5,318 nucleotides of DNA from a virus (taxonomy: Duplodnaviria; Heunggongvirae; Uroviricota; Caudoviricetes). Position 1 is the first letter of the stretch; each line of letters begins with the position of its first letter. The translations under genes were made by a program, and so were the position numbers. The stretch is taken from the IMG/VR virus record IMGVR_UViG_2703718792_000005; one strand, given 5' to 3'. Below the pieces are notes generated by a model that was not told the origin of the DNA, did not search any database, and saw nothing but the letters and a program-made list of their open reading frames with translations. This document shows positions 682 to 5,318 of the stretch, in pieces.

Positions 682-1425
682 ATGACAGAGACAGAATCAG
701 CGATTCTGGCGCACGCCCGGCGATGTGCGCCAGCGGAGTCGTGCGGCTTCGTGGTGAGAACGCCGGAGGGGGAAAGATATTTTCCCTGCGTGAATATCTC
801 CGGTGAGCCGGAGGCGTATTTCCGGATGTCGCCGGAAGACTGGCTGCAGGCAGAAATGCAGGGTGAGATTGTGGCGCTGGTCCACAGCCACCCCGGTGGT
901 CTGCCCTGGCTGAGTGAGGCTGACAGGCGGCTGCAGGTGCAGAGCGATTTGCCCTGGTGGCTGGTCTGCCGGGTGACGATTCATAAGTTCCGCTGTGTGC
1001 CGCATCTCACCGGGCGGCGCTTTGAGCACGGGGTGACGGACTGTTACACGCTGTTCCGGGATGCTTATCATCTGGCGGGGATTGAGATGCCGGATTTTCA
1101 TCGCGAGGATGACTGGTGGCGTCACGGTCAGAATCTCTATCTGGATAATCTGGAGGCCACAGGGCTGTATCAGGTGCCGTTGTCATCAGCACAACCGGGC
1201 GATGTGCTGCTGTGCTGTTTTGGTTCATCGGTGCCGAATCATGCCGCCATTTACTGCGGCGACGGCGAGCTGCTGCACCATATTCCTGAACAACTGAGCA
1301 AACGAGAGAGGTATACCGACAAATGGCAGCGACGCACACACTCCCTCTGGCGTCACCGGGCATGGCACGCATCTGCCTTTACGGGGATTTGCAACGATTT
1401 GGCCGCCGCATCGACCTTCGTGTGA
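682..1425 (+). CDS. K: Tail tip assembly protein K (lambda gpK-like); N-terminal JAMM/MPN metalloprotease-like domain plus C-terminal NlpC/P60 cysteine peptidase-like domain
   Basis: 247-aa ORF starting MTETESAILAHARRCAPAESCGFVV, nearly identical to recalled lambda gpK. JAMM motif HSHPGGLPWLSEAD (H-x-H-x7-S-x2-D) at nt 883-924. Candidate NlpC/P60 catalytic Cys in GVTDCYTLF (nt 1042-1044) and His in VPNHAAIY (nt 1240-1242). Starts 5 nt after the L stop, suggesting translational coupling. Confidence 0.95.
   Translation: MTETESAILAHARRCAPAESCGFVVRTPEGERYFPCVNISGEPEAYFRMSPEDWLQAEMQGEIVALVHSHPGGLPWLSEADRRLQVQSDLPWWLVCRVTIHKFRCVPHLTGRRFEHGVTDCYTLFRDAYHLAGIEMPDFHREDDWWRHGQNLYLDNLEATGLYQVPLSSAQPGDVLLCCFGSSVPNHAAIYCGDGELLHHIPEQLSKRERYTDKWQRRTHSLWRHRAWHASAFTGICNDLAAASTFV
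1306..1311 (+). promoter_or_regulatory. Shine-Dalgarno-like (GAGAGG) for I, embedded in the K coding sequence
   Basis: Purine-rich GAGAGG lies 11 nt upstream of the I ATG at 1323. Confidence 0.45.
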
Positions 1426-1970
1426 AAACGGGGGCTGAAGCCATCCGCGCACTGTCCACACAGGTCCCGGCGTTTCGTCAGAAACTGAATGACGGCTGGT
1501 ATCAGGTGCGCATTGCCGGGCGTGATGCAGGTGAAACCGAATTATCTGCCCGTCTTAATGAGCCGCTGGCAAATGGTGCCGTGATCCACATCGTACCGCG
1601 CCTGGCGGGGGCTAAAAGTGGCGGCGTATTTCAGGCTGTGCTGGGGGCGGCGCTGATTGCGGTGGCATGGTGGAACCCTGCAGGCTGGCTGGGTGCTGCG
1701 GCTTTATCGGGCATGTATGCGGCAGGAGCCAGTATGATCCTGGGCGGTGTGGCCCAGATGCTGGCACCGAAAGCCCGGACGCCCACAGCGACCAGCACGG
1801 ATAACGGTAAGCAGAACACCTATTTCTCGTCACTGGATAACATGGTTGCTCAGGGCAATGTTTTGCCTGTTCTGTACGGTGAAATGCGTGTGGGGTCGCG
1901 GGTGGTTTCTCAGGAGATCAGCACGGCAGACGAAGGTGACGGTGGTCAGGTTGTGGTGATTGGTCGCTGA
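1323..1970 (+). CDS. I: Tail tip assembly protein I (lambda gpI-like); N-terminal ubiquitin-like (beta-grasp) region and Gly/Ala-rich hydrophobic C-terminal segment
   Basis: 215-aa ORF MAATHTLPLASPGMARICLYGDLQRFGRRIDLRVKTGAEAIRAL...EISTADEGDGGQVVVIGR*, matching recalled lambda gpI at both ends. Start overlaps the 3' end of K by 103 nt in a different frame, as in lambda. GAGAGG Shine-Dalgarno-like motif at 1306-1311, 11 nt upstream of the ATG. Confidence 0.92.
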   Translation: MAATHTLPLASPGMARICLYGDLQRFGRRIDLRVKTGAEAIRALSTQVPAFRQKLNDGWYQVRIAGRDAGETELSARLNEPLANGAVIHIVPRLAGAKSGGVFQAVLGAALIAVAWWNPAGWLGAAALSGMYAAGASMILGGVAQMLAPKARTPTATSTDNGKQNTYFSSLDNMVAQGNVLPVLYGEMRVGSRVVSQEISTADEGDGGQVVVIGR

Positions 1971-2030: not shown

Positions 2031-5000
2031 ATGGGTAAAGGCAGCAGTAAGGGGCATACCCCGCGCGAAGCGAAGGACAACCTGAAGTCCACGCAGTTGC
2101 TGAGTGTGATCGATGCCATCAGCGAAGGGCCGATTGAAGGTCCGGTGGATGGGTTAAAAAGCGTGCTGCTGAACAGTACGCCGGTGCTGGACAGTGAGGG
2201 GAATACCAACATCTCTGGTGTCACGGTGGTGTTCCGGGCAGGTGAGCAGGAACAGACACCGCCGGAGGGATTTGAATCCTCCGGATCCGAGACGGTGCTG
2301 GGTACGGAAGTGAAATACGACACGCCGATCACCCGGACCATCACGTCGGCAAACATCGACCGTCTGCGCCTGACCTTCGGTGTGCAGGCACTGGTGGAAA
2401 CCACCTCAAAGGGTGACAGGAATCCGTCGGAAGTCCGCCTGCTGGTTCAGATACAACGTAACGGTGGCTGGGTGACGGAAAAAGACATCACCATTAAGGG
2501 TAAAACCACTTCACAGTATCTGGCCTCGGTGGTGGTGGATAACCTGCCGCCGCGCCCGTTCAGTATCCGGATGCGCAGGATGACGCCGGACAGCACCACA
2601 GACCAGCTGCAGAACAAAACGCTCTGGTCGTCATACACCGAAATTATCGATGTGAAACAGTGCTACCCGAACACGGCACTGGTCGGCGTGCAGGTGGACT
2701 CGGAGCAGTTCGGCAGCCAGCAGGTGAGCCGTAATTATCATCTGCGCGGGCGTATTCTGCAGGTGCCGTCGAATTATAACCCGCAGACGCGGCAATACAG
2801 CGGTATCTGGGACGGAACGTTTAAACCGGCATACAGCAACAACATGGCCTGGTGTCTGTGGGATATGCTGACCCACCCGCGCTACGGCATGGGGAAACGT
2901 CTTGGTGCGGCGGATGTGGATAAATGGGCGCTGTATGTCATCGGCCAGTACTGCGATCAGTCAGTGCCGGACGGTTTTGGCGGCACGGAGCCGCGCATCA
3001 CCTGTAATGCGTACCTGACCACACAGCGCAAGGCGTGGGATGTGCTCAGTGATTTCTGCTCTGCGATGCGCTGTATGCCGGTATGGAACGGGCAGACGCT
3101 GACGTTCGTGCAGGACCGACCGTCGGATAAGGTGTGGACCTATAACCGCAGTAATGTGGTGATGCCGGATGATGGCGCGCCGTTCCGCTACAGCTTCAGC
3201 GCCCTGAAAGACCGCCATAATGCCGTTGAAGTGAACTGGACTGACCCGGATAACGGCTGGGAGACGGCAACAGAGCTTGTGGAGGACACGCAGGCCATTG
3301 CCCGTTACGGTCGTAACGTCACGAAGATGGATGCCTTTGGCTGTACCAGTCGGGGGCAGGCACACCGTGCCGGGCTGTGGCTGATTAAAACGGAGCTGCT
3401 GGAAACGCAGACCGTGGACTTCAGCGTGGGCGCAGAAGGGCTTCGCCATGTACCGGGCGATGTCATTGAAATCTGTGATGATGACTATGCGGGGATCAGC
3501 ACCGGTGGGCGTGTGCTGGCGGTGAACAGCCAGACCCGGACGCTGACGCTCGACCGTGAAATCACGCTGCCATCCTCCGGTACCACGCTGATAAGCCTGG
3601 TTGACGGAAGTGGCAATCCGGTCAGCGTGGAGGTTCAGTCCGTCACCGACGGCGTGAAGGTAAAAGTGAGCCGTGTTCCTGACGGTGTTGCTGAATACAG
3701 CGTATGGGGGCTGAAGTTGCCGACGCTGCGCCAGCGACTGTTCCGCTGCGTGAGTATCCGTGAGAACGATGACGGCACGTATGCCATCACCGCCGTGCAG
3801 CATGTACCGGAAAAAGAAGCCATCGTGGATAACGGGGCGCACTTTGACGGTGACCAGAGCGGCACAGTGAATGGTGTCACGCCGCCAGCGGTGCAGCACC
3901 TGATCGCAGAAGTCACTGCAGACAGCGGGGAATATCAGGTGCTGGCGCGCTGGGACACGCCGAAGGTGGTGAAGGGCGTGAGCTTCCTGCTCCGTCTGAC
4001 CGTAACAGCGGACGACGGCAGTGAGCGGCTGGTCAGCACGGCCCGGACGACGGAAACCACATACCGCTTCACGCAACTGGCGCCGGGGAACTACAGGCTG
4101 ACAGTCCGGGCGGTAAATGCCCGGGGGCAGCAGGGCGATCCGGCGTCGGTATCGTTCCGGATTGCCGCACCGGCAGCACCGTCGAGGATTGAGCTGACGC
4201 CGGGCTATTTTCAGGTAACCGCCACGCCGCATCTTGCGGTTTATGACCCGACGGTACAGTTTGAGTTCTGGTTCTCGGAAACGCGGATTACCGATATCAG
4301 GCAGGTTGAAACCACAGCCCGCTACCTTGGCACGGGGCTGTACTGGATAGCCGCCAGTATCAATATCAAACCGGGCCATGATTATTACTTTTATATCCGC
4401 AGTGTGAACACCGTTGGCAAATCGGCATTCGTGGAGGCTGTTGGTCAGCCGAGTGATGATGCATCCGGTTATCTGGATTTTTTCAAAGGCGAGATAGGGA
4501 AAACCCATCTGGCTCAGGAGCTGTGGACGCAGATTGATAACGGTCAGCTTGCGCCTGACCTGGCTGAAATCAGGACGTCCATTACGGATGTCAGCAATGA
4601 AATCACACAGACCGTCAATAAGAAACTGGAAGACCAGAGTGCGGCAATTCAGCAGATACAGAAGGTTCAGGTTGATACAAATAATAACCTGAACAGCATG
4701 TGGGCAGTGAAGCTGCAGCAGATGCAGGACGGACGCCTCTATATTGCGGGTATCGGTGCCGGTATTGAGAACACCCCTGACGGCATGCAGAGTCAGGTGC
4801 TGCTGGCGGCAGACAGGATTGCGATGATTAATCCTGCAAATGGCAACACAAAGCCGATGTTTGTTGGTCAGGGTGATCAGATATTCATGAACGAAGTGTT
4901 CCTGAAGTATCTGACGGCTCCTGCCATTACCAGTGGCGGTAATCCTCCGGCATTTTCCCTGACGCCGGACGGGCGACTGACGGCGAAAAATGCGGATATC

Positions 5001-5318
5001 AGTGGCAGTGTGAATGCGAACTCAGGGACGCTCAACAACGTCACGATAAATGAGAACTGTCAGATTAAGGGGAAACTGTCCGCCAACCAGATTGAAGGCG
5101 ATATTGTCAAAACGGTCAGCAAGTCTTTCCCCCGCACGAGCACTTATGCCAGCGGCACCATTACGGTCACGATTAGTGATGATCAGAAGTTTGACCGACA
5201 GGTCATGATACCGCCAGTGTTATTCCGCGGTGGTAAGCATGAGAATTTCAACAGTAATAACCAACAGTCATACTGGTATTCAACCTGCCGATTAAGAGTG
5301 ACCCGCAATGGTCAGGAG
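2031..5318 (+). CDS. J: Tail tip central fibre / host specificity protein J (lambda gpJ-like), 3'-truncated by window edge (1096 codons present, no stop in window)
   Basis: Open frame from ATG 2031 to the window end reads [54 protein letters not shown]..., near-identical to recalled lambda gpJ (1132 aa) for roughly the first 820 residues. GGAG Shine-Dalgarno at 2019-2022, 8 nt upstream. Not listed in the ORF track because there is no in-frame stop within the window. The C-terminal third diverges from lambda. Confidence 0.96.

Follow-up and report, generated by a model that had tools for sequence, protein, structure and literature searches.

What would a protease of the deubiquitinase type and a protein with a ubiquitin-like (Ubl) domain, encoded by overlapping genes, do in the tail-tip operon of a phage? 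We addressed this question for genes K and I in a 5,318-nucleotide stretch of DNA from a tailed virus of the Caudoviricetes (the window; all features described here lie on its + strand). The window is occupied by an L-K-I-J tail-tip operon of the lambda type, and its DNA is about 94–95% identical to that of lambda-type phages in which L, K, I and J are annotated. The 3' part of gene L (2–676), coding for a tail-tip hub protein of the gpL family (Pfam Phage_tail_L, E 1e-97), is cut by the left window edge and its frame is open throughout; phage 21 and lambda carry L at the matching locus. It is followed by two ATG-initiated genes with Pfam matches, K (682–1425, 247 aa) and I (1323–1970, 215 aa, Lambda_tail_I), and by the 5' part of J (2031–5318), the gene for the central tail fibre, which matches the Pfam families FNIII-A_GpJ, Phage-tail_3, Ig_J, Phage_Tail_Tip and Ig_GpJ_C and is cut by the right edge. 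K and I are thus placed between L and J, as the original prediction of a tail-tip operon had it, and all of its coordinates were verified against the sequence. They are ordinary orthologues of the lambda tail-tip genes, in the order L-K-I-J, and related loci with K beside I again have these four genes side by side.

Between the I stop and the J start a GC-rich hairpin is followed by a U-rich tract (1988–2009). RNA folding of 1971–2030 gave -17.9 kcal/mol (z -2.55), and phage 21 has a terminator annotated at this place; a simple terminator scan of the window did not report the hairpin.

Domains of K and I

Pfam matches far beyond chance assign two peptidase domains to K, a Prok-JAB domain (PF14464, residues 4–105, 691–996) with 53.7 bits (cut-off 25, E 2.3e-14) and an NlpC/P60 domain (C40, PF00877, residues 111–224, 1012–1353) with 49.2 bits (cut-off 23, E 5.5e-13). 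Both profile searches had been named beforehand as tests of the domain assignment, and both gave significant matches. The JAMM motif is defined as E-x(n)-H-S/T-H-x7-S-x2-D (PMC300881), and K has it entire as E19, H68-S69-H70, S78 and D81. The stretch HSHPGGLPWLSEAD (883–924), which had been proposed as an intact JAMM motif, indeed lies exactly there and corresponds to K residues 68–81 with the zinc-site residues H68, H70 and D81 plus S78. Alignment of 10 K proteins (28–97% identity) showed E19, H68, S69, H70, S78 and D81 to be invariant. The upstream Glu (E19, codon 736–738) was omitted from the residues originally listed, yet it is present in K.

The structure model of K was built on P0031, a natural frameshift fusion that is 95% identical and lacks the last 28 K residues. 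In this model, which like that of I is of only moderate confidence, the JAB domain has the MPN fold, and the closest structures in the fold search were JAB/MPN+ enzymes, among them Rpn11 and PfJAMM1 in complex with SAMP2. Of the curated NCBIfam families the desampylase family comes nearest to the JAB part; K scores 29.8 bits there, below the cut-off of 130, and so lies outside that family. Its JAB/MPN+ domain is in the same enzyme class as archaeal desampylase and Rpn11. By profile, motif and predicted fold the JAB domain of K is a metalloprotease, with putative zinc binding and putative peptidase or isopeptidase activity on a Ubl C-terminus.

Resequenced lambda (PV340536.1) also has a K of 247 aa, to which the window protein is 97% identical. 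In the lambda reference (NC_001416) a difference of 1 nt shortens the annotated K to 199 aa. The intact K is the 247-aa protein, and the widely copied lambda annotation loses the catalytic Glu.

The Cys/His region of the NlpC/P60 domain was likewise found at the exact codon positions originally given (C121, 1042–1044; H187, 1240–1242; H199-H200, 1276–1281), and D120-C121, N186-H187-A188 and H199-H200 are invariant among the same 10 K proteins. For the catalytic spacing we used the rule of Spr/NlpC-type enzymes; K has the Cys, the His and the third polar residue, with H199 12 residues after H187. Matches to NlpC/P60 proteins in a PDB sequence search were weak (E 0.065). This part of the K model had a pLDDT of 46–73, and fold searches with it returned 0 NlpC matches.

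The partner protein I starts with a 13-aa leader and a MoaD-like Ubl domain, which a hydrophobic, Gly-rich linker joins to the plug domain at the C terminus. Its residues 14–97 (1362–1613) match Lambda_tail_I (PF06805) with 87.2 bits (cut-off 23.8, E 9.9e-25), and the predicted fold of the same residues is a ThiS/MoaD-like beta-grasp, so that both the family match and the fold agree with the beta-grasp domain expected at the N terminus. G21, F26 and G27 are invariant among homologues. At the end of the domain the stretch G96-A-K-S-G100-G101 (1608–1625) is a candidate cleavage site, based on conservation and on a prediction by Iyer et al.; across 65 I homologues (31–96% identity) neither G96 nor G101 varies, and K98 hardly does. 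Comparison of the I profile with the E. coli MoaD sequence was not significant (E 0.81). In that register I 82–93 lies against MoaD 66–77 and G96-A97 falls opposite the terminal Gly-Gly of MoaD, which is a hint only.

The plug domain (about residues 126–215, 1698–1967) was delimited with chains of PDB 9e7m (E 7e-44, window residues 131–214), and I matches lambda gpI in PDB 8iyk with E 5.5e-107. It corresponds to residues 134/135–223 of lambda gpI, the only part seen in virions by cryo-EM, and gpK was not detected in virions by mass spectrometry (PMC10721106, PMC12617516). The virion mass spectrometry gave a single gpI peptide with 9.87% coverage, and only the C-terminal tryptic peptide 202–223 has that length. 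Modelled alone, I had a mean pLDDT of 49, and the C-terminal half as a monomer stayed below 50, in keeping with a domain whose folding takes place only within the trimeric tip.

Lambda itself has the same gene order, the same 103-nt overlap and the same domains and motifs. Its gpI is 82% identical to the window I, and the differences, including the length gap of 8 residues (223 aa against 215 aa), are concentrated in the hydrophobic Gly/Ala-rich linker.

Candidate processing of I by K

The computational prediction of a lambda gpK/gpI pair to which the first description of this locus referred is that of Iyer, Burroughs and Aravind (2006), who paired K and I as TAPK/TAPI and predicted that the Ubl domain is cut at its C-terminal Gly (PMC1779556). 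According to a 2025 meeting report, gpK removes the Ubl domain of gpI by cleavage, and only once gpI is in the tip complex; the report is a single paragraph that leaves the catalytic domain and the site of the cut unnamed (PMC12908700). The statement that the role of the pair in tail assembly is poorly defined is therefore partly out of date, also in view of the F-pyocin checkpoint described below, and it still holds for the NlpC/P60 domain.

The F-type pyocin genes PA0639 (gpK homologue) and PA0640 (gpI homologue, the 'tip plug') form the same two-gene module in a tail-tip operon, although the pyocin is a tailocin and the window belongs to a phage. Window I matches a chain of 25vf, which by inference is PA0640, with E 9.5e-22. 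Only the C-terminal plug part of PA0640 is seen in particles, and its N-terminal region is lost at a 'proteolytic checkpoint': the region is present in stalled F-pyocin mutants and absent from mature particles. As it is retained in stalled tips, its removal is tied to the stage of assembly. Deletion of PA0639 gives tubes without tips. The F-pyocin study did not identify the enzyme that makes the cut.

We consider it likely that K cuts the Ubl cap off I during tip assembly, the window pair being a K/I pair of the lambda type. In the proposed mechanism I would be made as a precursor with its leader, the MoaD/SAMP-like Ubl domain (14–97), the conserved glycines, the linker and the C-terminal domain, and the latter would become the trimeric plug in the tail tip, where it keeps the end of the tape-measure protein in place. 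K would act as a non-structural assembly enzyme, whose JAB/MPN+ domain most likely recognises the Ubl domain and cuts the chain just after it. The cut would follow the building of I into the J-L tip complex, and removal of the Ubl domain may then permit the next assembly steps. We infer that the JAB site, and not the NlpC/P60 site, makes the cut, and that it would fall at G96-A97 or G100-G101. A model of a K-I fusion, for which K-only and I rows of the alignment were joined through bridging fusion sequences, had a pTM of 0.36 and is thus uninformative about the docking of the Ubl domain on K.

Alternatively, the Ubl domain could be a mere folding or solubility cap that is trimmed by unspecific host proteases, K having a different essential job in tip assembly. 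Recombinant PA0640 does lose its N-terminal region to host proteases in E. coli, and our literature search found no published K-I cleavage assay and no full paper on the biochemistry of the cleavage. However, K-dependent cleavage was reported in a talk (PMC12908700), stalled F-pyocin tips keep the N-terminal region of PA0640, and the adjacency of K and I is conserved across lambda-like and T1-like phages, with invariant active sites in K and invariant glycines in I. Trimming by host proteases is accordingly regarded as very unlikely.

The choice between the two active sites of K is a separate matter. Papain-fold enzymes are the commonest deubiquitinases, and the Cys-His-His residues of the NlpC/P60 domain are as invariant as those of the JAMM motif; both points can be counted for an NlpC/P60 domain that separates the Ubl domain from I, with the JAB domain merely binding the Ubl domain or having another substrate. 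Iyer et al. suggested such Ubl processing by NlpC/P60 as possible, and there are phages where TAPI adjoins a K with only NlpC/P60 (PMC1779556). Against this, the JAMM motif of K is complete and invariant, its nearest structures (PfJAMM1-SAMP2 and Rpn11) are those known to cut after MoaD/Ub-type domains, and the meeting summary refers to gpK by a 'deubiquitinating domain' (PMC12908700). We therefore hold a cut by the NlpC/P60 domain to be unlikely and favour the JAB site.

The second active site (Cys121-His187-His199) might instead not be redundant with JAB and cut another tail-tip substrate, the best candidate being the tape-measure protein gpH, which is processed to gpH* and gpHC by a protease stated to be not known. 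This is a speculative proposal that we think will probably not hold; if true, K would be a two-headed maturation protease timing two cuts in the tip. The C-terminal piece of gpH ends up held by the I plug. The NlpC/P60 site is conserved in K, which is not a virion (cell-wall-digesting) protein.

The original prediction described K and I as a ubiquitin-system-like pair. This is apt for the Ubl domain and the deubiquitinase-type protease and not for the rest of such a system, as no E1- or E2-type genes were found in the window, which holds only L, K, I and J. Since, in addition, the Ubl domain is synthesised as one chain with its partner, the pair points to processing and not to conjugation. This separates it from the archaeal JAMM1 desampylase with SAMP1/SAMP2 (PDB 5lda, 5ld9) and from Rpn11, CSN5 and BRCC36 with ubiquitin or NEDD8: the window pair has no E1, E2 or conjugation, its Ubl domain is the N-terminal part of its own 'substrate' and would simply be cut off, and K has a second peptidase domain. 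BilC of Bil and Cap3 of CBASS belong to bacterial defence modules with E1 and E2, whereas the phage K/I pair would serve the assembly of the phage itself.

Start of I and overlap with K

The 103-nt overlap of K and I (1323–1425) and the different frames of the two genes, I being in the -1 frame relative to K, were confirmed on the assumption that I starts at ATG 1323. The size of the overlap varies with the start chosen, because public annotations differ and place it at ATG 1323, ATG 1362 (Met14) or GTG 1422. GTG 1422, used in PV340536.1 with a 4-nt GTGA overlap, was rejected since I would then lack strand beta1 as well as G21, F26 and G27, which do not vary.

Comparative evidence favours ATG 1323 as the conserved I start in the lambda clade. 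This ATG is found in 8/8 lambda-clade lineages; it overlaps the Trp codon of K residue W215, and the preceding codon always ends in A (AAA, AGA, TCA). A Shine-Dalgarno-like sequence, GAGAGAGG (1304–1311), read from the window, lies inside K 11 nt upstream of the start. Its GAGG or GGAG core is likewise present in 8/8 lineages, and in the K frame it codes for the conserved residues R-E-R. The predicted N-terminal tryptic peptide of I from ATG 1323 is MAATHTLPLASPGMAR, or its Met-less form.

Translation from Met14 would shorten the overlap to 64 nt and remove the 13-residue leader. Such a start would fit the observation that residue 14 is where the Pfam domain and every distant homologue start, as well as the many database entries with an I of 200–202 aa. 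Residues 2–13 moreover vary mainly at third positions of K codons, so that the I frame appears to be without constraint of its own there. However, four lineages have another codon in place of Met14 (CTG in Stx phages and Edwardsiella, TTG in Providencia, a codon for Val in Salmonella), and the Stx phages have no other ATG, GTG or TTG upstream of strand beta1. No SD-like sequence precedes 1362, whereas ATG 1323 and its upstream GAGG-type motif are kept in every lambda-clade lineage. A start at Met14 thus seems rather unlikely, and ATG 1323 is used in what follows.

The overlap consists of two parts: 1323–1361 codes for the last residues of the K core and for the leader of I, and 1362–1425 for the K tail and strands beta1–beta2 of the Ubl domain. 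In the first part the K third positions are the most variable sites across the 8 lineages, while at the population level 3/3 variants are non-synonymous in K. In the second part 8/10 polymorphisms leave the I protein unchanged and alter K, compared with 14/15 synonymous in K in the K-only flank (1200–1322); across the 8 lineages the picture is mixed, with 12/20, 5/20 and 10/20 sites variable at the first, second and third position of the I codons. The polymorphism counts are from viral-contig loci 96–100% identical in K, with four more divergent loci added for the deeper comparison; few substitutions fall in the overlap, and the sequences compared are mutually related. Taken with these limits, the pattern suggests that each part is constrained mainly in one frame, and the overlap would then not be functional dual coding.

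An overlap of 97–103 nt is kept in the 8 lambda-clade lineages, and distant phages have one of only 4–20 nt. The long overlap is a feature of the lambda clade alone and therefore no general requirement for coupling K and I. In this clade the K stop is shifted downstream by about 60 nt compared with distant relatives, and I begins 39 nt ahead of its Ubl domain. The main likely consequence of the overlap is that the ribosome-binding site of I would lie inside K and be traversed by ribosomes translating K.

A programmed -1 ribosomal frameshift leading to a K-I fusion protein would match the frame of I, the about a dozen K-I fusion proteins in databases and the one fused prophage copy mentioned by Iyer et al. 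(PMC1779556). The fusions, however, are singletons with differing junctions (e.g. after K residues 213, 216, 218, 219 and 226), as random indels or sequencing errors would be expected to give. The K frame has no X XXY YYZ slippery heptamer between 1288 and 1425, and the short overlap of distant phages also argues against a frameshift. We regard this explanation as extremely improbable.

Implications

The reading of K/I as a Ubl protein and its protease was put forward in 2006 and others are now confirming it experimentally, so the copy in the window adds nothing new in kind. The present analysis adds three practical points: the intact K has 247 aa, ATG 1323 is the I start conserved in the lambda clade although databases carry three different ones, and the 103-nt overlap appears not to be functional dual coding. 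The K/I pair represents a clean non-eukaryotic case of a Ubl domain and a JAB protease that would act together as an assembly checkpoint of a virus tail.

The lambda-type tail-tip operon

The plus strand of the 5318-nt window carries open reading frames for the 3' part of L (2-676, Pfam Phage_tail_L), K (682-1425, Prok-JAB and NLPC_P60), I (1323-1970, Lambda_tail_I) and J (gpJ domain set), whose 5' part runs from 2031 to the window end. Based on megablast, 199 phage records cover at least 80% of the window, and the best matches (PhiR70_1, cdtI, lambda variants and phage 21) are 94-95% identical and carry annotations for the tail-tip genes L, K, I and J. This gene content, together with the Pfam families and the annotated matches, identifies the sequence as a lambda-type tail-tip operon.

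The C-terminal part of L (493-630, residues ~165-210 in lambda numbering) contains the cysteine cluster CTW...DECGY...KCSKCLSGCKF, corresponding to the [4Fe-4S] site reported in gpL (PMC10721106). A 515-aa frame antisense to J (2961-4508, minus strand) most likely stays open by chance on the strand opposite a long, GC-rich gene. Between the I stop and the J start lies a GC-rich hairpin, AAACCGCC-UGCU-GGCGGUUU (1988-2009), with a U-rich tail to ~2016. RNA folding of 1971-2030 gave -17.9 kcal/mol (z -2.55); a terminator is annotated at this position in phage 21, and the hairpin was not reported by a simple terminator scan. Placed midway through the tail operon, this putative terminator-like element might reduce the expression of J relative to I.

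Active sites of K

The original prediction had located an intact JAMM motif and an NlpC/P60-type Cys/His region in K, and all positions proved correct. The motif HSHPGGLPWLSEAD at nt 883-924 corresponds to K residues 68-81, the Cys codon 1042-1044 encodes C121, and the His codons 1240-1242 and 1276-1281 encode H187 and H199-H200. The JAMM motif is complete (E19, then H68-S-H70-x7-S78-xx-D81), including the upstream Glu, E19 (nt 736-738), which had not been listed. Pfam HMM matches for K and I were well above the curated thresholds, and the closest curated NCBIfam family for K was the haloarchaeal desampylase, with a score far under the cut-off. We aligned ten K sequences spanning 28-97% identity, taken from lambda-like, T1-like, HK97-like, Burkholderia, Stenotrophomonas and Acinetobacter phages. 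E19, H68, S69, H70, S78 and D81 in the JAB domain and D120-C121, N186-H187-A188 and H199-H200 in the NlpC/P60 domain were invariant, indicating that both active sites are kept by selection.

The window shares its 247-aa K frame, which starts 5 nt past the L stop, with phage 21 and the resequenced lambda PV340536.1. The lambda reference (NC_001416 13400-15600) is one base short (ggaggc-tatttcc) where the window has an extra G at ~816 (within 811-820), so that K is annotated there with 199 aa from an internal ATG, dropping the first 48 residues, the JAMM Glu included. The missing base probably reflects an old sequencing error, or else a reference-record difference, that has spread to many 199-aa annotations.

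The K/I overlap and the start of I

As originally proposed, I overlaps K by 103 nt (1323-1425); relative to K it is read in the -1 frame. The overlap measures 97-103 nt in eight lambda-clade lineages (the window, lambda, an Stx phage, Providencia PSTCR8lys, and Edwardsiella, Salmonella and two further enterobacterial prophages). Distant phages have short annotated overlaps: 4 nt in Burkholderia phiBt-TXDOH, 8 nt in Stenotrophomonas CUB19, 10 nt in slur06, 13 nt in mEp237, 17 nt in Acinetobacter qsb1 and 20 nt in the T1-like grams. According to protein alignments, the lambda-clade overlap is long because K extends ~12 residues beyond the conserved W-R-H-R/K ending and I has a 13-residue leader ahead of strand beta1.

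In public records I is annotated with three starts (window 1323, 1362 and 1422), giving 213-215 aa (ATG1), 200-202 aa (Met14) or 182-190 aa (GTG34, with a 4-nt GTGA overlap), and at one compared locus (L099) the gene caller set I wholly downstream of K despite an intact upstream frame. The GTG 1422 start, used in one lambda record, was rejected as it would remove strand beta1. Each of the eight lineages keeps ATG 1323, with a GAGG or GGAG motif 10-12 nt ahead of it; the K codon preceding the conserved Trp ends in A throughout (AAA, AGA or TCA). The Met14 position is a CTG, TTG or Val codon in four of the eight, and ahead of G21, F26 and G27, the invariant residues of beta1, the Stx phages have no ATG, GTG or TTG other than ATG 1323. 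Because ATG 1323 is conserved, Met14 is not, and the Stx phages lack an alternative start, ATG 1323 is the best-supported start of I and, judging from these sequences, the 103-nt overlap is real in the lambda clade.

Polymorphisms were counted among close relatives (26 haplotypes). Of the changes in the K-only stretch 1200-1322, 14 were synonymous and 1 was non-synonymous in K, whereas in 1362-1425 eight of ten variants changed the K residue and were silent in I; this latter segment had a mixed substitution pattern across the eight lineages. For 1323-1361, K third positions were the most variable among the lineages (9/12) and I third positions the least (4/12), and at population level all three variants were non-synonymous in K. 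These counts, which are small and come from related sequences, suggest constraint in mainly one frame for each part of the overlap; on this reading the I leader would be carried by the last conserved K strand, and the K tail by I strands beta1-beta2. K-I fusion proteins do occur in databases, but they are singletons with differing junctions and no slippery heptamer was found in the K frame from 1288 to 1425, making a programmed frameshift unlikely.

I homologues with a Ubl domain were also seen in Pseudomonas phage YMC11/02/R656 (1195-1779 of its locus) and Vibrio phage H20 (1204-1803), and in the immediate neighbourhood no K-like gene was found directly upstream of either. The Pseudomonas protein has a lambda-clade-like 9-residue leader, MTIAAHHTP, without an overlapping K.

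The ubiquitin-like domain of I and its probable removal by K

An AlphaFold2 model of I, built on a 65-sequence alignment reaching down to 31% identity, gave an N-terminal domain of moderate confidence (pLDDT 58-72) with the order beta-beta-alpha-beta-beta, and a low-confidence C-terminal half. All of the best 50 Foldseek PDB matches of this predicted model were beta-grasp Ubl proteins, in agreement with the fold proposed originally; MoaD ranked first (1fm0_D, TMt 0.69), followed by SAMP1, Urm1, ubiquitin and SUMO. We also modelled P0031, in which a natural frameshift has joined residues 1-219 of K with residues 7-215 of I and which shares 95% identity with the window. Its pLDDT was ~90 in the JAB domain and 70-83 in the Ubl domain, and its best Foldseek match was JAMM1 complexed with the Ubl SAMP2. 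Foldseek did not recover an NlpC/P60 fold from the P0031 model; this predicted domain is assigned solely from the HMM match and the invariant residues.

At the end of the Ubl domain lies the pattern I-x-I-x-P-x-x-x-G-[AS]-K-x-G-G, with G96 and G101 invariant and K98 nearly invariant in the 65 homologues, and these glycines are candidate cleavage points. A non-significant MoaD profile alignment would set G96-A97 opposite the MoaD terminal Gly-Gly. The cut would fall after residue 97 or after residue 101. The hydrophobic, Gly/Ala-rich linker that follows (1626-1720, residues ~102-133) is the most divergent segment of I compared with lambda and holds the 8-residue length difference from lambda gpI, the Ubl and plug domains being nearly identical. 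Others have predicted it to be a membrane-spanning segment that inserts into the outer membrane.

The JAMM motif of lambda K was already noted in 2003 (PMC300881). Iyer, Burroughs and Aravind described the same pair in 2006, with K as JAB plus NlpC/P60 and tail assembly protein I carrying a ThiS/MoaD-like Ubl domain with a conserved C-terminal Gly, at which JAB was predicted to cut and release the Ubl domain (PMC1779556); this is the published prediction to which the original one had referred. In lambda cryo-EM gpI is visible at residues 134/135-223 only, as a trimeric plug gripping the C-terminal helices of the tape-measure protein, and gpK is absent from virions (PMC10721106, PMC12617516). 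The virion mass-spectrometry table has a single gpI peptide (9.87% coverage); the only tryptic peptide of matching length is the C-terminal 202-223 (22/223 residues), so presumably no Ubl peptide was reported. [quoted passage not shown] In F-pyocin, deletion of the gpK homologue PA0639 gave tubes without tips; the gpI homologue PA0640 loses its N-terminal region at a proteolytic checkpoint, the protease not being named in that study, and when expressed alone it was trimmed by host proteases.

The original interpretation of the K-I pair is therefore supported and already known, and the pair in the window is an ordinary lambda-clade copy. A cell-wall role of K at infection is unlikely, as K is not in virions. 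We are less sure of the cut site and of JAB rather than NlpC/P60 as the scissile enzyme. The NlpC/P60 site is conserved as strongly as the JAB site. It is quite probable that K acts as a non-structural maturation protease: I would first be built into the tip, the JAB domain of K would then remove its MoaD-like cap, and the C-terminal plug of I would remain.
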